DNA of 64,000 nt, from NCBI GenBank assembly GCA_019248075.1, contig JAEHHG010000001.1:9294-73293 (forward strand), read 5' to 3'. Below, in pieces: positions 2,315 to 62,070 of this stretch; within the stretch, counting starts at the first letter, position 1; each line of letters begins with the position of its first letter. This DNA comes from Candidatus Gracilibacteria bacterium S5_H10. Lineage in GTDB: Bacteria; Patescibacteriota; Gracilibacteria; Absconditabacterales; Absconditicoccaceae. Made by a program: the position numbers and the translations under genes. The notes beneath the pieces were generated by a model. That model made no database searches. It had not been told where the DNA came from and saw nothing but the letters and a program-made list of their open reading frames with translations.

Positions 2315-4945
2315 ATGAAGAACGAACAAGACAGTAAAATTATTGCTACATGAACTGTAGTACCACATTCTATCGAGGATGAAATATCTAAATCGTATAT
2401 CGAATATGCGATGTCCGTTATCGTATCTCGTGCCTTGCCTGATACAAGAGATGGATTTAAACCCGTATTGAGGAGAATTCTCTTCTGAATGTATCAGATG
2501 AATAATTTTTTCAATCAGAAACATAAAAAATCAGCGAGAATTGTCTGAGAAGTTATGGGAAAATACCATCCACACGGAGATAGTAGTATCTACGAAGCTA
2601 TGGTGCGTATGGCACAACCATGGGCTTTCAGATATCCATTGGTTGATGGACAAGGTAACTTTGGATCTATCGATGGTGATGGTGCGGCGGCTATGAGGTA
2701 TACAGAAGCGAGATTAACGAAGATAGCTGAAGAAATGCTCAATGATATAGAACAAGATACTATTGATCGAAGAGATAATTTTGATGGAAGTCTCCAAGAA
2801 CCTATTATGCTTCCTACTAAATTTCCTAATCATCTCTGTAATGGTACGATGGGTATCGCTGTAGGTATGGCAACAAACATGGCACCACATAATTTAGGTG
2901 AAGTCCTTGATGCTTCATTATTACTTTTGGAAAAAGAAGGAAAACCTCTTACAGAAAAACAAAAACTAGCAGCTGAAAAAACTCTAGCAGCACAGGAATG
3001 AAGTAATGACACAGAAAATACCGAAAGCATTTCTACTACATACAAAGTAAGTATTGATGAAATCATGGAAATCATCAAATGACCTGATTTTCCTACAGGA
3101 GGAATTATTTATGATTCAAACAATATCAAAGAAGTCTATAAAAAAGGTAAATGAGGTATTGTTATGAGAGGAAAAACACATGTAGAAGAAGATAAACATG
3201 GAAATATTATCGTTATTGATGAAATTCCTTACTTAGTGAATAAGTCTAGTTTAGTTTCAAAAATCGGTGAATTGGTAGTAGATAAAAAAATAGAAGGAAT
3301 CACTGACATGAGGGATGAATCCAGCAAAAATAAAATCAGAATTGCAATTTATCTCAAATCTGGTGTAGATGCAAATAAAATTCTCGTAGAACTTTATAAA
3401 TATACAGAATTGCAATGTGCATTTAACGTCAACAATGTATCACTTATAGAAGCCGGAAAACAACCGAGGCTTTTGAATATCAAAGACCTTTTGATGGAAT
3501 TTGTTACGTTTAGAAGATCAGTTGTCTACCGTAGATCTATATTTCAGCTTAATAAAGCAAAAGATAGATTACATATTCTCGAATGATTAAAAAAAGCTAT
3601 TGATGTCATTGATGAAGTAATTGATACTATCAAAAAATCAGATACAAAACAAGATGCAAAAGAAAATCTGATCAGCAAATTCGAATTTTCTGAAATGCAA
3701 GCAGAATATATTTTGATGATGAGATTACAATCGTTGGTTGGCTTGGAAATCAAAAAAATCGCTGATGAAATAGATGAAAAAAAGAGAATAATCGAAGAAC
3801 TTGAATCAATTATTAATGATTCAGACAAACTTGATGGAGTCATAAAAAATGAATTTGTATATATGAAAAAACAGTATGGAGACGAAAGAAGAACAGATCT
3901 TTCGCAAGATCTTAGTGTATATAATGTCTCTTGAAGCCTCAAGGCATTTATGGCAACTGCTGACAAAATAAAGGAAGATGTTATCGTCTGGATCTGAAAT
4001 GATTATAGCATTAGAATATTGTATCAGTCTAGAATTCAAGCGATACCCGAAGAAACTATGGATCTTATTTATACGCACAATCAAGATAAATTGATCGTTA
4101 TCACTGATATTGGCGAATTAGTCGTACAAAGATTGAAAGATCTCGGAAGTTTTGCTATGAAACAAAATGCAATAAATTTGAATGAATATTTCTGACTTAA
4201 GGGAAAGATTGTTTTTGCTAAGACGCTTCATTTTGATTATCATCATTTGGTATTCCTAACCAATCAAAATAGTTGTAAAAAAATAAAAAAAGAATTAGTC
4301 TTATCATTCAAAAAATTTCCGACCGTTATTATGAAACTTGCAGACAAAGAAAAAATCTTGAGTGTGGAAGCGGTAAACGATAGTGATAATATATGAATTC
4401 TCACAAAACAATGATGGATGTTGCTTTTCAAGAGCAGTGATCTGAGACCTATGGGAAAAACAGCAGGATGAGTTAAATCTATCGAACTTCAAGAAGGTGA
4501 TGAAGTAGCAAATATGTTTTTACATAAAGGTGAACCATTTATTCTTATCCATGCGAATAAAAATGGTAAATTACTTAATCTTGAAGATCTAAAAATACGA
4601 AAGAGAGCGAGAAAATGACAGGTAGTCATGACAGGAAAAGAAAATCTTGAAGGTGGAATAAGTATTATCGAATGAGCGATCAGGATCAGATTCAAAGATA
4701 GCACTATCAAAACACTCCACTCCAATGATATCCATCTTGATGAAACAGAAACACCGTTAGCAAAGATGGTTGATAAAGATATCGACGTCATTTATAGACC
4801 TCGAGAAGAAAAAGATGAAAATCTCAGATACAAAGAAGAAAGAAAAAAAGCTGAAAAAGAAGCTGAAAAAATGGAAAAAAATGTAACTGAAGCATCTGAA
4901 CAACCTGAAGAGGTCTCTGAAGACGAAGAGACTATCACTGAGTAA
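2315..4945 (+). CDS. gyrA: DNA gyrase subunit A
   Basis: Track fragments 2555, 3164 and 3695 share one frame. Motifs [20 protein letters not shown] and [37 protein letters not shown] are present. The UGA at 2546 falls on the Gly of [16 protein letters not shown]. The gene has an acidic C-terminal tail and ends at TAA 4943. Confidence 0.95.
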
Positions 4946-7945: not shown

Positions 7946-8620
7946 CTAATATTGTATTTGTATTCCAGGTCACATAGTAGGAGCTATATATATTTTCTTG
8001 ATCAATTTTCCTTTGACTCCAGTTGGTTTATTTTCTTCTAGTGCTTTAAGGAATGCTTTGATATTTTCCTCTATCTGTGTTTCAGTAAATGACATTCTTC
8101 CTATAGCTGCGTTTATATTTCCTGTCTTATCAAGTTTAAATTCTATCTTTCCTTTTTTGAATTCTTCTACTGCTTGTGGAATATTTGTTATTACTGTTCC
8201 TGCTTTTGGAGATGGCATAAGTCCTTTTGGTCCAAGCTGTTTTGCAACAGGTGCCAAATCTCTAATATGTTCTGGAGTAGTAAGCAATATATCAAATTCA
8301 AATTTTCCTGCTTTGATATCAGCAATCAATGTTTCAGTCCCTACGATATCTGCTCAAGCTTTTTTTGCTTCAGCTTCATCTGAAGAGAATACAGCGATTC
8401 TTTTTGTCTTTCCTGTTCCATGAGGAAGAATAGTTGTTCCTCTCATCATTTGATCATTGTACTTAGCATCAGCAAAAGTTTTTACTGCAATTTCTACTGA
8501 TCCATCAAATTTTGTATATCCAGTTTTTTTAAGCAAATCAATTGCTTCTTTGAGTGGATACGCTTTTGTAGAATCTACAATTTTAGCAGATTCGCGATAC
8601 TTTTTTCCGTGGTTTGCCAT
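7946..8620 (-). CDS. rplA: 50S ribosomal protein L1
   Basis: MANHGKKYRESAKIVD...GTGKTKRIAVFS...GPKGLMPSPKAGTV. The UGA at 7970 is read through, giving the conserved C-terminus TMGPGIQIQY; ends at TAG 7946. Confidence 0.95.
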
Positions 8621-16300: not shown

Positions 16301-16334
16301 AAAAAAAACTCCTTATACAGGAGTTTGTGTTTTA
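16301..16334 (-). terminator. rho-independent terminator
   Basis: Stem aaactcc/ggagttt followed by a T-run on the minus strand, directly after the stop codon at 16332. Confidence 0.6.
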
Positions 16335-16742
16335 ATCTGTACAATCCTGGCTATCCGCGGATAATACTGGAATTTCTTTGAGTAAGTAAGAAAAAAATAT
16401 TTCACTTTTTTCTCTGGGAATATATCGTATTCCTTTTACTGTGCCATCATCAAAGATAGCATATTTGCATTGGAAATCCAACTCCTCATATTCCATTTTG
16501 GAAAACGGAGTAGAAATTAACATTACTGAGAAGAAAAATGTTGAGTCAGTAAAAGTAAGTTTCGCAGATTTCACATAGCCAGCGTTTACCGTATCTATCT
16601 CACAATATACTAGGTAATAGTCGCTGAATAGCGAATGGATATATTCTATCTGTTTCTTTTCTGAAACAGAAAGATTTAAAATGTTTTGAGCTCCTGAATA
16701 TAAGCTCATAAATATCATCAGCACAAAGAATGTTTTTTTCAT
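16332..16742 (-). CDS. secreted hypothetical protein (136 aa)
   Basis: Signal-peptide-like MKKTFFVLMIFMSLYSGAQN. The ORF is intact under the standard code (no UGA) and ends at TAA. Confidence 0.5.
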   Translation of the reverse strand: MKKTFFVLMIFMSLYSGAQNILNLSVSEKKQIEYIHSLFSDYYLVYCEIDTVNAGYVKSAKLTFTDSTFFFSVMLISTPFSKMEYEELDFQCKYAIFDDGTVKGIRYIPREKSEIFFSYLLKEIPVLSADSQDCTD

Positions 16743-37412: not shown

Positions 37413-37629
37413 AAAAAAACCATATATTTTTATTGTACATATTTATTCAAATGTCAACCATAAATACTTAGACCCTACCACAAAAACACGAATAATACCA
37501 GTTCTTAAGTACAATATATATTTATTACAAAAACAAGCTTTTTTCATCAATAATCTCTTGAAATACAGTTCCTATATGATAATATCTTTGTTGTACACAG
37601 TACTTTTTTATTTAGTAATTATTTGTACA

Positions 37630-37911
37630 ATGACTAAAACTGCTCTTATTGCAAGTCTAGCTGATCAATTAGGTGTTTCTAAAAAATTAGCTTCTGAATT
37701 AGTTAACTCTTTCATCGACACTGTTATTGCTGGTGTTAAAAAAACTGGTGAAGTTAGAGTTCAAGGTTTCGGAACTTTCAAAGCTTCAAAAAGAAAAGCT
37801 AGAGAAGGTGTTAATCCACAAAACCCAAGTCAAAAAATCAAGATTCCTGCTATGAAAGTAGTTACTTTCAAAGCTGGTTCTGAATTTAAAGGTGCTATCA
37901 AAAAATCTTAG
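37630..37911 (+). CDS. hup: DNA-binding protein HU
   Basis: MTKTALIASLADQLGVSKK...GFGTFKASKRKAREGVNPQNP..IKIPAMKVVTFKAG. Confidence 0.9.
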   Translation: MTKTALIASLADQLGVSKKLASELVNSFIDTVIAGVKKTGEVRVQGFGTFKASKRKAREGVNPQNPSQKIKIPAMKVVTFKAGSEFKGAIKKS

Positions 37912-41323: not shown

Positions 41324-42292
41324 TTACAATACTGCATTAAAGAAATATCATAATATCATTATCGCCAAGCCCACCACTCCAAAGAAAATGAGTAATAATT
41401 TTGTCTTCATGACTTTTTTGAGAATAAGAAATTCTGGCATAGATAAGCCAACGACGGCCATCATAAATGCTAGTCATGTGCCTAGCGGAATTCATTTTGC
41501 GATTAATGCTTGGACGATAGGAATTACGCTGGTGGCATTGGCGTACATAGGAATTCCAACTATCACGGCGATAGGGACCGCGAATGGATTGTTTTTGGTG
41601 ATGTATGCTTCAAAGAATCCCGTAGGGACGAAGCCGTGAATAGCTGCACCCACCGCCACTCAGAGCAACACATAGGGAGTGACTTTTTTGGTAATGCTCC
41701 ACGCTTCTCTGATAACTTCTTTGATTCTCTGTGAAAACAACATTTTTTTCTGGATTATTTCAACGGATATACTTGCTCTTTTGGCTTGGATAAAATCCGC
41801 GAGATATCTTTCCAATTTGAGTTTTCCGAGAAATCGTCAACCAACCATTCCCATAACTATACCACTAATCATATAGATTGCAGTGACTTTGATTCAGAAA
41901 ATTCAGAGAAACATCGCTATAGCTACTTCATTCACTAACGGCGAAGTAATGAGGAAAGCAAAGGTAACACCTAGTGGTATTCATGCTTTGAGAAACCCTA
42001 CGAATAACGGAATCGATGAACAAGTACAGAAAGGAGTGACTGCTCCGAACATGGATGCGAAAAAATATTCCAGTCAGAATAATTTATTTCTGGCTAAGAA
42101 GTTTCTGATTTTCTCTATCGGTAGATACGAGTTTAAAAGTGTCATCAGAAATGTAATCACCAGCAAGAGCAAAATAATCTTGATACTGTCATAGAGGAAA
42201 AAATTGAGCGCTTGGGCCAATTGCGTCGTAGCGTCGAGGTTGAGTACCGTGTAGGTAAACCAGTTGGTGATAGTTTCTATTCGTGTAAACAT
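41324..42292 (-). CDS. COG0701/ArsP-like permease with a CxC motif
   Basis: [43 protein letters not shown]; about 8 TM segments; the plus-strand track ORFs in this region are shadows. Confidence 0.75.
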
Positions 42293-45848: not shown

Positions 45849-47279
45849 TTAAAGTTTACTTATTTCATAGCTATCCTTAGTATCTTTTACCTGGAATCAT
45901 AATTCAGTAATCTTACTCCTCAATTCATCAGCCAACGCAAAATCTTTACTTTTCTTCGCTTCAACCCTCTGGTCTGCAAATGCTATAACTTCAGCTGGGA
46001 TATCAAACTTTTCTTCTACGATAGTTTCGAACAATCAGAGTTTTAGGAAATTATCTTCCAACCAAGTGATGATCGCATAGGTAGTTTCGGTTGCTGTATT
46101 CAATGCTCATTGTACCGCTGCTAATAATTTAGGTGTATTCATATTGTCGCAGATGGCTTCCATGATTTGTTGAAACAATGGATCAGATTCAAAATCTTTT
46201 TTATCTTGTATCGTCTTTTTTCATTGAAGTTTTTTTATTAAGGAATGTCTGGTATTTTTGGCAGCTTCTAATTGATCCCAAGTAAAGTTTTGGAAGTTTG
46301 AATATTGGGCCATGAAGTAGAAATATCTGAGATCGAGTGGAGAAAATCCTTTAGCTTCTATGTCTTTCAAGTTGTAAACGTTACCCAATGACTTGCTCAT
46401 TTTTCCGCCATCTACCTGCAAGAACTCATTGTGAATCCGATATTTTACTCGAGGATGAACGTCGAAACCACACTCAGATTGTGCTATTTCGTTGGGATGA
46501 TGAATCGTGATATGATCCGCTCCTCCATGATGAATATCAAACTGGTGTCATAAATATTTAGATGACATTGCACTACACTCTATATGCCAACCAGGAAATC
46601 CTCTTCCCCATGGCGAGTCTCGCTCCATCTGTCTCTTTTCGTTTTCGGGAGCAAATTTTCGTAAAGCGAAATCAGTCGGATGTTTTTTTCCTCCCATCTC
46701 CACTCTTTCTCCTGCGTTCAGATCCGCCAAACGTTTTTTGTAATTTGGTCACATAAGCTCTCCATAATTTTCTACTTTGCTCGTGTCCATATAGATTCCA
46801 TCTCATTCGACAGTATAGGTATATCATTTTTCTTCTAACGTTTTGACTAATGCTATCTGTTCCTCAATATGTTCGGTTGCTCTCGGCATCACATTGAATT
46901 CGTCTATATGCAAAAGTTTCATTCCTTCTTTGAAAATTTTCTCATATTTCTGAGCCACTTCTCGAGCGGTAATTCCTTCACGTTTCGCTCACTTTTCCAA
47001 TTTATCTTCTCCATCATCAGCATCTGAAACCAAATGTCCGACATCAGTAATATTCATCACTGCTTGTACGTTGTAGCCAAGAAGTTTTAACGTATTTCTA
47101 ATCAAGTCTGCCGTGAATGTTGCTCTATAATTCCCAATACTAGGATCTCGATAAACGGTCGGTCAGCATGAATACATTCCCACAAAATCTTTTTTAGGAC
47201 CTTTATAATTAGGATCTTCCATCAAGGGAATAAATTCTTCCTTCTGACGAGTGAGTGTGTTGTAGATATATAATTGCAT
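45849..47279 (-). CDS. cysS: cysteine--tRNA ligase
   Basis: [21 protein letters not shown](CGG)IHNEFL, and [10 protein letters not shown]. Confidence 0.95.
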
Positions 47280-47334
47280 TCAAAATATACAAAAAAATAA
47301 AGTCTTATATAGTAGTAATAAAGCTGAGAGTAAT

Positions 47335-47460
47335 TTCAAATGAAATATGCCGCAGTACTGCGGCATAATTTCGACCTTATGAAAAAACCTCGATACTTCG
47401 GTTTTTCATTGGGTCTCAATTTAAAAAAGAGGCGAAGAAAACTTCGCCTCCGTAATGTAA
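47335..47460. repeat. family-2 hairpin repeat (copy R2), including a minus-strand terminator
   Basis: A 20-bp perfect palindrome atgccgcagtactgcggcat; atttcgacc; and gaggcgaag-aaaa-cttcgcctc followed by T6 on the minus strand (47422..47451). Confidence 0.55.
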
Positions 47461-47468
47461 TAATGTTT

Positions 47469-48101
47469 TTACTGGCCCCAACCAAAGTTCATAAAACCAT
47501 TTCGTTTGTACTTGGCTTTGTGATTAGGATTTTGAGCAAACTTTAGGAAATATTCCACAAGCCTGTCGTAATACTGCCAGAAATAATCTGGATCCTCATC
47601 AGGATTGAAAACAAAAAGATGTATGATTTCATCTTCAATCCATGGAATCCTTTCTCCGGATGCCCAATCAATACCACCATTCACAACAGATTCACAATAA
47701 TTATGAAGCCGTTGCAAAGCTTTTTCTGAATAATCGGGACAAACTCTGTACAATTCAGCATTAACACCAACATCGATACGTACCCAAACAGTCTTCTGAT
47801 GTCGTGGAGAATGTTCTCTCCAGTATTCATCATAGGTACCTACAACCTGATCAATGGCGCCCGGCAATTCTTCTTGTAATACAAGCATGACTTCGTTCGC
47901 CCAATATCTGGCTAAGGAATCATACGATGATGGATCATTGGTTGATCGGTCAGCATCAATTCGATTCTCAGCTTCCACAATTTTGTTTCCGGTATTTTTC
48001 AGTATTTCTACCTTTATATACCGTGGCTGTTCATCATCTGAACAGCTTACAACAATCATCGAAATGATTGCAATCATCAAAAGAAAAGTAATTTTTTTCA
48101 T
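47469..48101 (-). CDS. lipoprotein of foreign appearance (210 aa)
   Basis: Lipobox-like MKKITFLLMIAIISMIVVSCSDDE. It is intact under the standard code, with 10 Gly codons, none of them UGA, and it is visibly richer in G+C than its neighbours. Confidence 0.7.
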   Translation of the reverse strand: MKKITFLLMIAIISMIVVSCSDDEQPRYIKVEILKNTGNKIVEAENRIDADRSTNDPSSYDSLARYWANEVMLVLQEELPGAIDQVVGTYDEYWREHSPRHQKTVWVRIDVGVNAELYRVCPDYSEKALQRLHNYCESVVNGGIDWASGERIPWIEDEIIHLFVFNPDEDPDYFWQYYDRLVEYFLKFAQNPNHKAKYKRNGFMNFGWGQ

Positions 48102-48287
48102 ATGTTTGTTTTTTATTGTGTTTTACTTTTTGGTTTCTACTGACTATCCTACTAATTTTAATAAAAAAGTCAAGTTTAATCTTTAAAAAAACCATTTTTA
48201 CGATATTCATTGATTTTTAGTGGATTTTCTGTGAATTTTCCGTATATCACACGATGAACTATTCATTTTTACTTTAGGTACTACACT

Positions 48288-50756
48288 ATGGTAAATTTTG
48301 GAATCCTCGGTAACAATTCGAGGAATCTCCTCTATATAAAAAAATTTAACGACAAAAAAGGTATTCGTCTAGCAAACAATAAGCTTCAGACGAAAGATTT
48401 TCTCGTAGAAAGAGGAATTCCGTTTGCAAAGACTTACGGAATTATTTCCAATCGTACAGAACTCTATGATTTTGATTTTGCTTATCTTCCCAAGAAAAAT
48501 TTTGTCGTGAAGCCCAATCATGGAAGCAAATGACAATGAGTCTATATTGTAAAGTATATCGAGGAACAGCATCCAGATGAAAATAATAGTAAAGAAAAAA
48601 ATATCAGTAAAAAGAAAAATACATTTCAAAAGCGATGAGAGCAATGTAAAAAAATATTTTTGAAAAAGTTTGAAGAACATCAACATCACGGCAACTACCA
48701 GATAGGAGATGAAGTACTGACTGATCAAGATTTTAGAAGACGTTTGCTAGATATCATTGATGGAAAGCATTCTATGACACTTGGTGGAGACAAAATCATT
48801 ATAGAAGAAAAACTCATCGCCGGAGAATTATTCAAAGAATTTTGTGACTATGGATTGGCTGACATTAGAGTCATCGTCTTCAATCTCGTGCCTGTCGCGA
48901 CCATGATCAGAGTACCGACAAAACAATCCTGAGGTAAAGCAAATCTCGCTCAGTGATGACTGTGATTTGGTATTGAAGTCGGAAGTGGTAAGATTACTTC
49001 CCTACTCCGAAAAAATAAAATATACAAAGTTAGATTTCCCAAAAAATTCGCTCATTTCCAAAATAAAAAACTTCCCTACTGGAATGACATTCTTTTTCTT
49101 TCTTCCAAAGTACAGTATTTTGTCAATCTCTGATATCTCGCACTTGATCGAGTAATAACCAATGAATGACCAAAACTTCTGGAGATAAATGCAAGAGCGT
49201 GATTAGAAGTACAAAAAGTAAGTGATACAAAATTGAAAAATATTTTGGATAAAATAGCTGATCTCAAAATAGTCGATCCAGAAAAATGAGTAGAAATAGC
49301 AAAAAGTTTATTCACTTCTGAAAAATCAAATCTCCTCTGACAAAATAAACTTCTTTACCTTTCTCAATATGCAAAGCTCATCATCAAAGAAAAAGAAGAA
49401 GAGGAAAAAATTGATGTTATCGTAGAAGTAGATCTGAATAAATCATGAAATTATATGTCACAAAAATTGTTTAATAAAATCAAAGAAAATAAAAGAGAAC
49501 GATATCTTGATCTCTACGAAAATGAGATTACCCTCAAAAAATCAAAATTTTCTAATCTGGAAAGTCTAGCTGATAATAAAATAATTCTTGGTAACAAAAC
49601 TGCAAGCAATTATCTTATAAAACCTATTCATAAAACTTTTGATGTCGTTGATATCGTCAATCCAAAATATATTTATCCATTGGAAACTGCAGAACTTCAT
49701 AGCATTGATCAAAGAATAGAAAAAATCAATAAAAGACTTAATCTCTCTGCAAGACTAAGACCACTAAATTATTTTAGTGAACTCGATAAATTCATCACGC
49801 TTCACGGAAAATATAATCCTATTTTCCATTATAAACGACCAAAAGAAGATAAACTGAATCAGACCAAGAACGAAATTATCAAAATCCAAGAACACCTTCT
49901 CAAGCTCAAAAGCCCGTTTACTAAGATATTTTTGGACAAACTTGAAGAACTAGAAACGAGAAGAAATCTCATTCTTGCGTATACACAACAAAATTTTGAA
50001 AATATAGCATTGTACAATAAAAAACTTTTTGGTGAGTTCGATGATGAACTTTTGAAGATAGCAAAAGAAAAGGTATTAACACTCAAGGAAGATAATCAAA
50101 AGCTTTTGTGAGAACCGTTGACTCTATCGGAAATAGAAAAAACCATAGAGAAATATCTCGCAGAAAAAAAGATTTATGGTGTAGATATTGTTTTCAGTTA
50201 TACTAATCTTTCAAGAATTTCTGTGATTATGGGAAAACAGATTAAAATAAGCATTTCCAAGCATGGAGTATTCAGAGAAAAGGAATTGCTTTCTATTTTA
50301 GCCCATGAAATCGATACTCATCTCGTCAGATATCTTAATGGACTCAAATCTGGATGGAACATTTTAAAATCAGGAACTGGATTCTATCTCAAAGATGAAG
50401 AAGGGCTCGCCATCTATAATGCCGTCAAAATACTTCCTGAAGATTATGAAAAGAATAGTTTCTATAAAAAATATTTTTTAGTCAAAGAAGCAGAAAATAT
50501 AGATTTCAAAAAACTTGTAAATATGATAGAATTTCTTTATCCTAGCTATTCAAGAGAATTCCATTTTAAAACTGCATTGAGAATCAAAAAAGGAATTATA
50601 CATACATCAATACTCCATCCAGGAACTGTTTTTATGAAAGATAAAATCTATCTAGAATGATACAAAAAAATCAAACAACTAATGGAAGATTGAAAAGAAA
50701 ATGCTAAAATATATAAATGAAAAATTAAAAGTGAAGATTTAGATTATATAATATAA
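48288..50756 (+). CDS. fusion protein: RimK-related alpha-L-glutamate-ligase-like ATP-grasp domain (N-terminal) plus DUF1704/QEGLA MATCAP-like metallo-carboxypeptidase domain (C-terminal); 822 aa
   Basis: Track ORFs 48288, 48660, 49455 and 50118 are all in frame 0 and join through UGA. ATP-grasp signatures: FVVKPNHGSKGQGV, DIRVIVFNLVPVATMIRVPTKQSGGKANLAQGG and GPKLLEINARAGLEVQ. C-terminal domain: HEIDTH (50304..50321) and DEEGLA (about 50396). Confidence 0.8.
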
Positions 50757-50757
50757 C

Positions 50758-51726
50758 ATGGCGGCAAAACTATGATTTCAACAAATTTCCAAATATTTTT
50801 TGCAAGAAGAAGCAAAAAAAAGGTGATATACTATAGAAACTATTCATGAAAATAAAAATATTTTTTTTATAAAGCACAAAACAAAAAACATCTTATTTAA
50901 ATGAATCGATGCTTGATTAACTACTAGACTTGGCAAATATTTAAGCGAAGACAAACTTTTAACCTATACATTATTACAACGTAATAATATAAACATACCA
51001 GAATGTATAGTGATACATAAAAAAAACAAGATAGATCTTACAAATATAATAAAATTATGATTTCCATTGGTAACGAAACCTCTCAATTGAAGCTTATGAA
51101 GATGAGTTGTTGTATGAATCAAGACTAAAAAAGAACTAGAAAAAGCAATTAATTATAGCTTTGGTTTTGATAAAAATATCATCATACAGAAATGCGTTGA
51201 ATGAAAAAATCTAAGAATATTAGTCATCAATCATAAGGTATTTGCGTGATTAGAATGGTCAAGACATCATATAGTATGAGATGGAAAATCCTCCATCAAA
51301 GCATTATTAGAAAAAGAAAATCTAAATTCTCGAAGATGAGAGAATATTCTTATATCCACACTTCCAAAAATCAATATCAATCAAGATTTAGAAGATTTTT
51401 TTAAAGTACAATATTGATATGCATTTACTCATCGTCCTAAAAAGGATGAAATAATTTTTCTCAAAGGAAATGGATACAATAAAGTAATAGATATTACCGA
51501 TGAAATTCCGAAAAAGATTAAAGAAAAGTGTGAACAAGCAAGTATTGTTTTTGATTTAAAGGTTACAGGGATTGATGTGATATATAATATATCATCTTCA
51601 GGGGAAATGGATTATCGAGTATTGGAAGTAAATTCTCAGCCAGGAATAAGAACACATCATCTACCCATGTGATGAAAACCGAGAAATGCGGCATGAGCTA
51701 TTTTGGATCTTTATTTTGACAAATAA
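50758..51726 (+). CDS. ATP-grasp ligase resembling the N-terminal domain of cyanophycin synthetase
   Basis: The ATG lies 1 nt after the upstream stop. FPLVTKPLNGSLGRGVVVGI...RILVINHKVFAG...VLEVNSQPGIRTHHLPMGGKPRNAAGAILDLYF. Confidence 0.7.
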
Positions 51727-51760
51727 AGCATACAATATATTTATTTTTTCACTATCATCT

Positions 51761-52714
51761 ATGGAATTCGGATCATATGCATCTAATCAAATCTATAAAT
51801 ATGCTAAATCATACGATGTAAAAGCAACTGCGATTTCTTATGCAGACAACCTTATCCTGTTGGAGCACAAAGGAAAAAAAGAATTAATAAAGCAGACAGC
51901 AACTCGTTTCACTAATCTTATCCAAGGAAGAATCTGCGACAATAAGATTTTGACAACACAATATTTAAAAAGGAATTGAATCGATAATGTACCCAACAAC
52001 ATAGTGATCAAAGATTTTGAAGAGATAAAAAAGTATAAAATAAATTATCCCGTAGTCGTCAAACCATTAAAATGACATTGATGAAAAGGGATATCTGTAT
52101 GAGTCAGGACAAAAAAAGATTTGGAATCAGCATATAAAATAGCTAAAAAAGTTTATTTTCGCGTATTGGTGGAAGAACATATAGAAGGCGATGATTATAG
52201 ATTCTTGGTGATTGATAAAAATGTCCGAATATGCAAAAGAATGCCGCCAAAAATAATGGGGAATGGAAAAAATACCATTAAAAAACTTATAGACAACGAG
52301 AACAAACTAAGGGCAAAAACAAAAATTCTCGTGAATATCAAAATTGATAATGAGCTTAAACAGCAAATAAAAAAACAAGGATATACTTTGGATAGTATTC
52401 CTGCTAAGGATGTAGAAGTAGCACTTAGAAAAAACGCCAATCTGAGTACGTGAGGTACAACTATTGACTATACAGACCAAACACATATACAAAACAAAAA
52501 ATTAGCACTCAAAATAGCCAAGATTATGGATATGAAAATCATAGCCGTAGATTTTCTCTTTAAGGATCCAACGAACCCCTATTCTAAAGAAAATGGGATA
52601 ATTATAGAGATAAATGATACACCATGAATAAGATTACACCATCCAAGAGAAAAAGAGATTGTATATAACATATGTAAACTTTTATTCCCTACTCTTAGAA
52701 AATGAAAATATTAA
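51761..52714 (+). CDS. second cyanophycin-synthetase-N-like ATP-grasp ligase
   Basis: YPVVVKPLKGHGGKGISVGV...YRFLVIDKNV...NLSTGGTTIDYTD...IIEINDTPGIRLHHP. Confidence 0.7.
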
Positions 52715-53571
52715 TAGTCCATGCTATAGAAAGACCCACACTTAATTTATTAGTACAGGCAGCCAAAAAAAGATGACATACTGTTCTTACGTGTAAAATA
52801 TCGGATATTGAAATATATGATGGAAAAATATTCTGCAACAATCAAGATATTGCATCTTTTGATATTGTACTTTTTAGAGAAATCAGAAACAATAACGAAG
52901 AAGCAAAAATGATAACAACATATCTTAATGATTATAAAAAAATCATCATAGATGAAAGAATACGTGATGGTAAATGATGAAGTAAAATAAATACTTATCT
53001 GACACTTTCTCAGGCAAAAATCCCATTCCCTAAAACGATGTTTTTTTCAACAATCAAAGGCAAAGGATATTCATTTATTTCAGAGATATTATGAACACCC
53101 TTCATAACAAAGACAATAAATGGACAACAAGGGAAATGAGTCTATTTGACAACAAGCGAAGACGAATTTGAAATACTCAAAAAAGAACATACGGAAGATA
53201 AATTTTTGTTTCAAGAATTCATACCTAATGATTGAGACATCAGAGTGTTTATAGTATGAGACAAGATATTATGATCTATCAAAAGAACAGCACAAGCATG
53301 AGAATTTAGGAATAATGTAGCATTATGATGAAGTGCAGAAACAATAGAGATATCAAAAGAAATAGCAGAAATAGCGTTGAAAGCTAGTAAAATATTATGA
53401 TTACAAATAGCATGAGCAGATGTAATCATACACAAAAATACAGGCAAACCATATATTTTGGAAGTAAATCGTTCGCCGGAATTTGAATGATTTATGGAAG
53501 CAACACATATAGACGTAGCTACCGAAATCATCTCTTTTCTTGAAAAAATATGAACACCAGAACTTACATAA
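52702..53571 (+). CDS. RimK-type alpha-L-glutamate ligase
   Basis: It overlaps the upstream gene by 13 nt. PFITKTINGQQGKGVYL...GDIRVFIVGDKILGSIKR...FRNNVALGGSAE...GADVII....GKPYILEVNRSPEFEG. Confidence 0.8.
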
Positions 53572-61419: not shown

Positions 61420-62070
61420 ATGCCAAGAAGAAAAGTAGAAAACAAGACAATAGAAGTCATCCTTTTACAAAACGACAAACATCTCGGAGAAAAATTTGAG
61501 ATTGTAAGAGTAAAGCCTATTTTTGCTAGAAATATTTTGTTACCACAAAATATCGCTGTTTTAGCTGATCCTGACAACAAAAATAAATTTGCTCAAAAAA
61601 TGGCAGCAGCAGAAACTGATAGACAAAAGAAAGCTTCTGGTCTAGAAGATCTTTTTGCTAAGCTTAATGCTGATGGAGGTATTGTCCTTGTCAGAAAAGC
61701 TAACGCTGATGGAACATTGTACGCAAAAGTAGATGAAAACGATATCGTAGCAAAAATCAAAGAAACATATACTGTTGCTTTAGAACCTCATTACTTAAAA
61801 CTCAAAAAGAAAATAACTGCTCTTGGAAACTTTACTATACCATTCTTATATAAAGAACTCAAAAAAGATATTGCAATAAAAGTAGAACAAGATCCTGAAG
61901 AAGCAGAAAAGATAGCTAAGCACAAGAATGCAAAGATTGCTAAAGCAACTCCAGATGAAGAAGTAAAAGTAAAGAAAACAAGAGAAGAAGTTATGGCTGA
62001 AAAAGAAGCTGCAAGATTAGCTAAGAGAGAAGAAACAATCAAGAGACTCAAAGAAAAGTTTAAGGATTAA
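61420..62070 (+). CDS. rplI: 50S ribosomal protein L9 with a Lys/Glu-rich C-terminal extension
   Basis: IEVILLQNDKHLGEKFEIVRVKPIFARNILLPQNIAV. Confidence 0.9.
   Translation: MPRRKVENKTIEVILLQNDKHLGEKFEIVRVKPIFARNILLPQNIAVLADPDNKNKFAQKMAAAETDRQKKASGLEDLFAKLNADGGIVLVRKANADGTLYAKVDENDIVAKIKETYTVALEPHYLKLKKKITALGNFTIPFLYKELKKDIAIKVEQDPEEAEKIAKHKNAKIAKATPDEEVKVKKTREEVMAEKEAARLAKREETIKRLKEKFKD

Follow-up and report, generated by a model that had tools for sequence, protein, structure and literature searches.

Codon reassignment is thought to cover every gene of a genome and thereby to isolate that genome genetically from its neighbors. In Absconditabacteria, UGA is read as Gly and CGA/CGG as Trp, a code described by Shulgina and Eddy (2021, PMC8629427). 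Among the closest described systems are TGA-free phages predicted for Gracilibacteria and Absconditabacteria, in which a gene that ends in TGA has another stop downstream (Liu et al. 2023, mBio, PMC10746230), and, according to work cited in that paper, stop-recoded phages in which genes without in-frame recoded stops are readable before the code switch. From the perspective of protein export, Bacteroidota lipoproteins are known to reach the cell surface by means of a K-(D/E)2 lipoprotein export signal (LES), as in C. canimorsus (Lauber et al. 2016, PMC5080379). Here, we analyzed a stretch of 64,000 nucleotides from Candidatus Gracilibacteria bacterium S5_H10 (contig JAEHHG010000001.1, positions 9,294 to 73,293; hereafter the window) and found that a lipoprotein gene at 47469..48101 does not fit the expectation that a reassignment covers every gene: it belongs to a family conserved in the standard code, which has withstood two reassignments over the whole history of its clade while mutating under the bias of the recoded genome itself.

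A gene family conserved in the standard code

Open reading frames (ORFs) were called across the whole window with UGA as a sense codon, and codons were then counted in the lipoprotein gene and in its two neighbors, taken as controls for the code of the resident genome:

47469..48101, minus strand: lipoprotein coding sequence, 210 codons plus TAA stop (ORF calling with UGA as sense)
48021-48023, 47961-47963 and 47946-47948, minus strand: CGA/CGG codons R27, R47 and R52 of the lipoprotein gene (standard-code reading)
47802-47804, 47709-47711 and 47502-47504, minus strand: the remaining CGA/CGG codons of this gene, R100, R131 and R200
45849..47279, minus strand: cysS (cysteinyl-tRNA synthetase), downstream neighbor and control gene in the native code, with 11 UGA-Gly codons and CGA/CGG at Trp positions
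48288..50756, plus strand: ATP-grasp/MATCAP fusion gene, divergent upstream neighbor and second control in the native code

The lipoprotein gene has 10 Gly codons, all GGN and none UGA, together with 7 UGG, 4 CGA, 2 CGG, 1 CGT, 3 AGA and 2 AGG codons. An earlier reading of this DNA, made from the letters only (hereafter the sequence-only reading), had reported the same coordinates and length, and the same Gly, CGA and CGG codons, all of which the count upholds. Two of its figures had to be lowered: UGG was said to occur nine times, which would bring the protein to about 15 Trp under the resident code, when there are 7 UGG and hence 13 Trp, and UGA was said to be roughly half of the native Gly codons, when its share is ~37% (11 UGA and 24 GGN among the 35 Gly codons of the longest ORF at cysS, 45849-47366; 17 UGA and 30 GGN among the 47 of the ATP-grasp/MATCAP gene; 37-38% in conserved columns). 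Taken alone, without its orthologues, the window gene is only suggestive of the standard code (0/10 UGA, P ~0.01, which is marginal among 63 ORFs), and the statistical strength of what follows is drawn from the comparison of orthologues in codon-aware alignments.

When cysS of 16 related genomes was aligned codon by codon, the columns with CGA/CGG were found to hold 100 CGR codons, 68 UGG and 1 Arg codon, and UGA accounted for 174 of the 473 codons in conserved Gly columns (37%). For instance, the universally conserved Trp of PGWHIEC in cysS is encoded by UGG in the window, and a related contig (L001; L numbers are our labels for related loci) has CGA there. The ATP-grasp gene behaves in the same way, with 26 UGG versus 5 Arg codons as partners of CGR, and UGA at 124/324 conserved Gly positions (38%). 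The codon pattern of both genes matches the Absconditabacterial code (PMC8629427), and it is from this code that we take the label Absconditabacteria-type. The window and 22 related loci were found to contain no tRNA gene. Two lineages can be mentioned for their native genes. At L091, which is more distant and GC-richer (0.39), cysS (2817-4400) has 12 CGA/CGG and 0 UGG, the MATCAP gene (491-1648) has 4 CGA and no UGG, and native Trp coding seems almost wholly shifted to CGR. In the very AT-rich lineage of L094 (69-4763; GC 0.27), UGA is the majority Gly codon of the flanking genes (57/84, 68%).

The lipoprotein family differs from these native genes at both reassignments. Across 17 distinct alleles, totaling 4,208 codons, we counted 234 GGN and 1 UGA, along with 112 UGG, 43 CGA/CGG, 54 CGY and 80 AGR. 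UGA occupies 0/87 cells of the conserved Gly columns of the family versus the 174/473 of cysS (Fisher P = 5e-16), and the partners of CGR stand at 0 UGG to 53 Arg codons versus 68 to 1 in cysS (P = 4e-34), with the reservation that these tests count alignment cells, which are phylogenetically non-independent. The contrasts are nonetheless all-or-none, and alleles of ~210 aa show them as well as those of ~290 aa. The invariant Gly columns switch freely between GGT, GGA, GGG and GGC and never take UGA, the invariant Trp columns have UGG in all alleles, and the columns with CGA/CGG are Arg or Arg/Lys columns, in which 31 Lys codons accompany the 53 Arg codons. The third base of CGN in the family (A.26, C.18, G.19, T.36) is distributed as in its other fourfold boxes (.32,.19,.15,.35; chi-square P = 0.52). 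In the window allele, CGA encodes R52, the best-conserved Arg of the family (at least 90% over 37 members). The same opposition is visible within single loci: the family gene of L091 has 5 UGG and 1 CGA next to a cysS with 12 CGR and no UGG, and that of L094 uses UGA for 0/16 Gly codons versus 68% in its flanking genes.

The sole UGA of the family, codon 279 of the L020 allele, stands exactly at the family's natural C-terminus: GEYFLEIPAY followed by TGA in L020 corresponds to IYYLEIPAY followed by TAA in the close homologue of L094, and a resident-code reading would append a 20-residue tail. This single case is suggestive of a UGA that behaves as a stop codon. Overall, the alignments show that the family is conserved in the standard code, with UGA never standing for Gly, Trp written as UGG only and CGA/CGG used as ordinary Arg codons. 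The proposal of the sequence-only reading that a standard-code gene lies in a recoded genome is therefore borne out, on the stronger ground of orthologous columns.

These data bear directly on the hypothesis of an ordinary native translation, according to which a very highly expressed gene would avoid UGA and CGR(Trp), and CGA/CGG would be read as tolerated Trp. As support for it, the lipoprotein gene has a near-consensus promoter and a strong terminator, and the following native genes, presumed to be highly expressed, are nearly devoid of UGA (2/33 Gly codons vs ~37% genome-wide):

7946-8620, 37576-37911 and 61420-62070 of the window: genes for L1, HU and L9, native genes that avoid UGA (codon counts)

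These three genes have no CGA/CGG, write Arg as AGA and have a very low GC3 (G+C at third codon positions) of 0.15-0.20, a pattern that suggests translational selection against the reassigned codons. Such selection can explain the avoidance of UGA, yet not the use of CGR as Arg. It also predicts an AGA-only, low-GC3 usage, when the family uses all six codons of the Arg box. Moreover, in the two Arg columns conserved throughout the family, 24% of the Arg codons are CGA/CGG, the same 24% as elsewhere. We see no means of squaring resident translation with this distribution, because the conserved Arg sites that become Trp would differ at random from one allele to the next, for a ratio of nonsynonymous to synonymous rates (dN/dS) below ~0.1, and because CGR would drift to UGG, which is never seen even though CGG to TGG is one transition and natively synonymous. 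Ordinary native translation is thus strongly disfavored, and we consider it highly improbable.

Neither the 64-kb window nor the ~150 kb of related Absconditabacteria-type loci showed another gene with a standard-code signature. A small, secreted-looking ORF of the window (16332-16742; MKKTFFVLMIFMSLYSGAQN...) has 0 UGA, with just 4 Gly codons, too few for judgment. Two odd ORFs were also noted at related loci, one of 90 codons with 23 UGA and 9 UGG (L006:8244-8516), probably an antisense or low-complexity artifact, and one Ser-rich with tandem repeats (L019:2286-2645).

Residence, selection and allele exchange at the locus

The sequence-only reading had attributed the standard-code signature to a recent transfer, possibly from a host or prey bacterium. 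As a rival explanation, this would be a single acquisition, not yet ameliorated, from a standard-code Bacteroidota host or prey or, in its alternative form, a chimeric contig. The signature itself, the LES-like signal and a somewhat raised G+C would fit such a transfer; the distribution of the family argues against it. A word-indexed protein search returned 7 homologues, all metagenomic, with 50-69% identity; an exhaustive hidden Markov model (HMM) search of 1.84 billion representative proteins returned only 32 family members, some at ~25% identity; and a second word-indexed search, with the family profile as query, added little. The listed members of at least 200 residues all have lipoprotein N-termini. 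Every member with a readable contig lies divergent from the ATP-grasp/MATCAP gene and upstream of cysS, among flanking genes rich in UGA-Gly, and homologues were found only in genomes with UGA=Gly and CGA/CGG=Trp. These contexts comprise L001-L005, L006 (a GTDB species representative, whose family gene shares its N-terminus with the homologue P0005 and stands for that allele type), L007 (P0036), L008/L009 (P0013), L090-L093 (P0045) and L094/L095 (P0032). Since protein databases might favor UGA-free ORFs, loci were also fetched via cysS, with ORFs called with UGA as sense, and a family gene was found in L010, L011/12, L014, L015, L017 and L020. In others, the site is empty (L013:3786-3919, L030:4342-4501 and, for L025/26, L025:4157-4501): only 130-340 bp separate the ATP-grasp gene from cysS, whose promoter region is retained. 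The lipoprotein gene is hence a presence/absence polymorphism within the clade, and other lineages have different upstream neighbors of cysS.

No homologue in a standard-code, phage or plasmid context was found in the protein HMM search, in INPHARED and PLSDB (tblastn) or in IMG/VR (two scans). The locus has no bracketing direct or inverted repeats and no tRNA, its neighbors being cysS and the ATP-grasp gene, and no phage hallmark context was seen around it, with housekeeping neighbors and no match in PHROGs, INPHARED or IMG/VR. No integrase was found in any locus examined, and the lipoprotein gene has its own conserved promoter, unlike a promoterless integron cassette. As a side observation on the surroundings, the ATP-grasp/MATCAP fusion is followed in the window by several RimK-like ATP-grasp genes (48288-53571), a cluster kept beside the lipoprotein locus in many relatives and a possible peptide-ligase system. 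In L001 (1165-1503) and L010 (2936-3274) only, a native-code ORF of 112 aa (MKEILSN...) stands between the lipoprotein gene and cysS.

Composition also argues against a recent transfer. The gene was described as visibly G+C-richer, and its G+C content is indeed 0.384 versus 0.325 for the window, although the ORF at 41324-42292 is higher (0.395) and GC3 at ordinary codons is native (0.284 vs 0.271 in native genes). The excess of G+C is due to amino-acid content and to the choice of Arg, Gly and Trp codons rather than to a foreign composition. When 15 alleles are pooled and compared with 39,685 native codons of flanking genes, synonymous usage is almost identical for all ordinary amino acids and differs solely at Gly/UGA, the Arg box and Trp. 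At ordinary codons, GC3 of the family further tracks that of the resident genome across 13 loci (0.20-0.39 vs 0.16-0.45; Spearman 0.73, P = 0.005). These observations show that the lipoprotein gene is resident and mutates under the resident genome's own bias, and that it is long established at its syntenic site in an Absconditabacteria-type lineage, not a recent arrival. Indeed, homologues with the same codon features occupy the same syntenic site in many related recoded genomes, down to ~25% identity, an observation that the sequence-only reading had itself named as its refutation. Donor homologues were not found in the searches made, and more than 20 independent assemblies have the same junctions, which excludes a chimeric contig. 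We therefore regard a recent transfer or a misassembly as almost certainly the wrong explanation.

Nei-Gojobori counts gave a proportion of nonsynonymous differences (pN) of 0.18-0.30 for a proportion of synonymous differences (pS) of 0.75-0.93, the latter being saturated, which shows strong purifying selection on the standard-code reading. Since synonymous sites are saturated under the resident bias, GGA to UGA and CGG to UGG changes must have arisen many times and been removed by selection. The age of the alleles is also apparent from comparisons between the window and L001 or L011, where cysS has a pS of 0.51-0.56 and the lipoprotein gene is saturated. Between the near-identical genomes of L001 (1-1700) and L010 (1560-3480), the flanks are 87-100% identical and the alleles (213 vs 289 aa) unalignable, with break points at the start codon/signal peptide and just past the terminator; L014 and L015 show a similar cassette-type replacement. 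The locus is thus a hypervariable cassette that recombination within the conserved flanks exchanges between genomes, with alleles that arose before those genomes split.

The same sharp boundaries could be taken as a sign that alleles repeatedly enter this hot spot from an unsampled standard-code pool, be it a host lineage so far unsampled or code-11-compatible phages rich in AT, and that no allele has been resident long enough to adapt. The saturation of the lipoprotein gene relative to cysS in the same genomes, the empty sites and the existence of TGA-free phages of such hosts (PMC10746230) are all compatible with recurrent import. However, the 32 members drawn from 1.84 billion proteins, in all readable contexts, come from one and the same locus in recoded genomes, and INPHARED, IMG/VR and PLSDB gave no match. 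Usage of ordinary codons is moreover native and correlated with the resident genome, the promoter, the start of the signal peptide and the terminator belong to the conserved flanks, and a phage pool would merely relocate the puzzle of CGR decoding to the phages. On balance, recurrent import appears improbable to us.

Expression signals and predicted protein

The gene is framed by signals that are largely conserved between loci, and its product begins as a predicted lipoprotein:

48146..48173, minus strand: sigma-70-type promoter, TTGACT-16 nt-TAGGAT (cross-locus conservation)
48102..48145, minus strand: A-rich 5' leader without Shine-Dalgarno sequence (base counts)
48042..48101, minus strand: signal peptide and lipobox, MKKITFLLMIAIISMIVVS-C20 (MKK, hydrophobic stretch, VVS, then C20)
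48030..48041, minus strand: S21-D22-D23-E24, LES-like motif right after Cys20 (family consensus C-x-K-(D/E)-E)
47428..47451, minus strand: Rho-independent terminator of the lipoprotein gene, GGAGGCGAAG-TTTT-CTTCGCCTC plus T run (hairpin fold)
47367..47421, minus strand: second long hairpin of ~55 nt (GACCCAATGAAAAACC...GGTTTTTTCATAAGGTC), between the terminator and the cysS promoter, kept in L001, L010 and L006
47343..47370, minus strand: perfect palindrome ATGCCGCAGTACTGCGGCAT, window-specific

The near-consensus TTGACT-16-TAnnnT is kept in all alleles examined, namely in the window, L001-L007, L010, L011 and L020. Our statements on promoters rest on this conservation across loci and not on a sigma-70 consensus scan of the region, which gave no enrichment over shuffles (83 vs 92.5). 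The native cysS promoter has the same architecture (TTGAAA-16-TAnnnT) and is retained at the empty sites, so that transcription of the family is probably carried out by the resident RNA polymerase.

The leaders, of about 45-55 nt across alleles, are unusually rich in A: over the final 30 nt, A makes up 73% in the window and 66% on average in the family, versus 33% in 92 native genes (P = 8.5e-10), among which 1% reach 60% A upstream. A Shine-Dalgarno sequence is missing in the family, as it naturally is in Bacteroidetes mRNAs (PMC6847099); its absence was considered as a discriminating feature and dropped, native genes being equally devoid of it (1/48).

On the 3' side, an equivalent terminator hairpin follows every allele, and the two extra hairpins between the window terminator and cysS fold with a z of -6.9; Rfam gave only sub-threshold small RNA matches for this region and no family. 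The gene had been described as bracketed by a hairpin-repeat array, a description that holds for the 3' side, where there are three hairpins, and fails upstream, where nothing comparable and no flanking repeats are seen. The longest ORF at cysS over-extends the 5' end of that gene across the palindrome (47343-47370); the conserved start MQLYIYNTL lies at 47279, with a conserved GACTTTATTTTTTT motif and the TTGAAA-16-TAnnnT promoter ahead of it.

The N-terminus of the window protein, MKKITFLLMIAIISMIVVSC followed by SDDE, is as previously read. Cys20 is invariant in the alignment of 37 sequences and one member matches Pfam LPAM_1; with its signal peptide and lipobox, the family is a predicted bacterial lipoprotein family. 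After the Cys, 34/36 members (94%) have K at +3, 81% have D/E at +4 and 64% have it at +5. In a family whose mean column identity is only 26%, C-x-K-D/E-E is thus one of the features that are best conserved. This motif fits the K-(D/E)2 LES of C. canimorsus, and the C-SDDE of the window fits the SDD(D/F)(D/E) type of B. fragilis and F. johnsoniae (PMC5080379), in agreement with the Bacteroidota-style signal proposed by the sequence-only reading. Native lipoproteins of the same genomes, in a small sample, have LLAGC followed by G-S/T instead.

Beyond this signal, Pfam, PHROGs and PADLOC assigned no real family to the window protein and the 37 members, and the only matches, all weak, were to the N-termini of Bacteroidota lipoproteins (DUF4971/4972, and Tannerella potempins, the latter from a PDB profile search and confined to the signal-peptide region). 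With the 37-sequence alignment of standard-code translations, AlphaFold returned a confident, all-helical model (predicted local distance difference test [pLDDT] 86, predicted template modeling score [pTM] 0.79), and with an alignment of 8 sequences a poor one (pLDDT 59). A Foldseek search of the predicted fold against PDB and BFVD gave nothing at E <= 0.001, and the mature domain has no relative in Pfam, PHROGs, PADLOC, PDB or BFVD.

Candidate decoding contexts and comparison with known systems

How, and whether, this gene is correctly expressed was the question raised by the sequence-only reading, and in our judgment it is the right one. The residence of the gene, its evolution in place and the purifying selection on its standard-code reading together suggest that selection acts on a standard-code translation product. 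We infer that the product relevant to fitness is made by an apparatus that reads CGA/CGG as Arg and does not read UGA as Gly, unlike the usual apparatus of the bacterium. Our best explanation overall, put forward as tentative, is that of a resident, standard-code-selected gene for a predicted surface lipoprotein whose product would come from a standard-code cell, probably the host. That the second translation apparatus would be that of the host or prey cell, through trans-cellular expression of delivered mRNA or DNA, is a more doubtful step, which we deem possible rather than probable. Concretely, the presumed episymbiont would deliver the mRNA or DNA of the lipoprotein gene to the host or prey cell, host ribosomes would translate it, and the product, once lipidated at Cys20 by the host, would be carried to the host surface thanks to its Bacteroidota-type K-(D/E)2 signal. 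A parasite-specified, strain-variable lipoprotein shown on the host surface might then serve as an attachment or occupancy marker, and we propose that such a strain-specific role would account for the rapid turnover of alleles. Although speculative, the host cell would be the most economical candidate, with the Bacteroidota-type export signal and the atypical leader pointing the same way.

Several points weigh against a product made in the host. To our knowledge, no mechanism transfers nucleic acids from an Absconditabacterium to its host, and no such route was found in this analysis. Known hosts of Absconditabacteria are Gammaproteobacteria, not Bacteroidota. The promoter is of the sigma-70 type (TTGACT/TAnnnT), like that of the native cysS, and not of the Bacteroidota consensus (TTTG/TAnnTTTG); such a native-type promoter suggests transcription inside the episymbiont and disfavors expression at the DNA level in a Bacteroidota host. 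Native genes also being without Shine-Dalgarno (1/48), that feature of the leader is non-discriminating, and since L1, HU and L9 avoid UGA too (2/33), UGA avoidance alone could reflect translational selection. Finally, TGA as a stop relies on one allele, L020, and the LES match is a short motif.

A second decoding context could also arise inside the bacterium if the gene were a code-shift sensor or defense gene, the correct protein being obtained only after decoding is shifted by a phage compatible with the standard code. That phage would supply a tRNA-Arg for CGA/CGG and perhaps release factor 2 (RF2), and the lipoprotein, triggered by infection, would act in exclusion or abortive infection. 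The TGA-free, code-11-compatible phages predicted for Absconditabacteria and Gracilibacteria (Liu et al. 2023, PMC10746230) would provide the trigger, the locus is arms-race-like, being empty in L013, L025 and L030 and swapping alleles between near-identical genomes, and the promoter is of the native type. However, no PADLOC defense family or PHROG was matched, no phage genes were found nearby, and a phage tRNA-Arg or RF2 of that sort is undocumented in the literature found on these phages. A strong constitutive promoter would also keep yielding mistranslated protein in uninfected cells, and the conserved LES-like motif would be left unaccounted for. A code shift by phages is, in our assessment, quite improbable, and we retain translation in a standard-code cell, probably the host, as the tentative reading.

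The observation is robust, its mechanism has several candidate readings, and the kind of phenomenon is new: full-text searches of the literature on Absconditabacteria, Gracilibacteria and recoded genomes retrieved no description of a standard-code gene in an Absconditabacterial chromosome. What the observation implies would be new in each case, be it a second decoding context visible to selection (the host or a phage-shifted state), a hidden donor pool or a gene-specific decoding. If the host were indeed made to display a parasite-specified, strain-variable lipoprotein, this would amount to trans-cellular gene expression. From a practical viewpoint, inferring the code gene by gene could flag, in uncultivated recoded symbionts, effector genes whose expression takes place in other cells or is intended for them. 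The locus also marks a rapidly exchanged, putative surface determinant, probably central to the interaction between Absconditabacteria and their hosts.

With regard to known systems, the TGA-free phages resemble the lipoprotein gene in that both are genetic material tied to UGA=Gly hosts and free of in-frame TGA, with compatibility with a standard-code cell as the proposed reason (PMC10746230). They differ in being whole genomes, when here a single gene of the chromosome is concerned, at a fixed site between housekeeping genes and with no phage genes. The prophages in that study are all code-25 and CGA/CGG=Trp is not considered there, whereas the lipoprotein gene is positively standard, with CGA/CGG as Arg, and not merely code-neutral. 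The code heterogeneity of recoded phages, as presented in the work cited by Liu et al. (PMC10746230), is alike in that a single genome contains genes suited to different decoding states, the codon content of each gene telling in which context it is read; there, stops are turned into sense codons in standard-code hosts, when here the genome is cellular, one gene keeps the ancestral code and a sense-to-sense reassignment is concerned too. Bacteroidota LES lipoproteins share with the family the signal peptide, the lipobox Cys and K-(D/E)2 at +3 to +5 (PMC5080379). The family differs from them in that it resides in recoded genomes of the candidate phyla radiation type, that its mature domain has an all-helical predicted fold without PDB or BFVD match, and that its surface export is a prediction.

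Two further comparisons concern function and population dynamics. The T-DNA of Agrobacterium carries genes that are inherited by the bacterium, adapted to the expression signals of the host cell and whose product acts in the host. It relies on a well-defined transfer machinery, borders and eukaryotic signals, when no machinery or borders were found for the lipoprotein locus and its promoter looks native, so that the analogy is hypothetical and functional only. Capsule, O-antigen and pilin-type loci are hypervariable surface loci exchanged by flanking homologous recombination. Like them, the lipoprotein locus is fixed between conserved flanks, with unalignable alleles in near-identical genomes, alleles that predate the genome splits and empty sites; we know of no locus of this type that differs in genetic code from its own genome. 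None of these nearest known cases corresponds to the lipoprotein gene, which belongs to a cellular chromosome and has retained the ancestral code in the face of two reassignments, including a sense-to-sense one.

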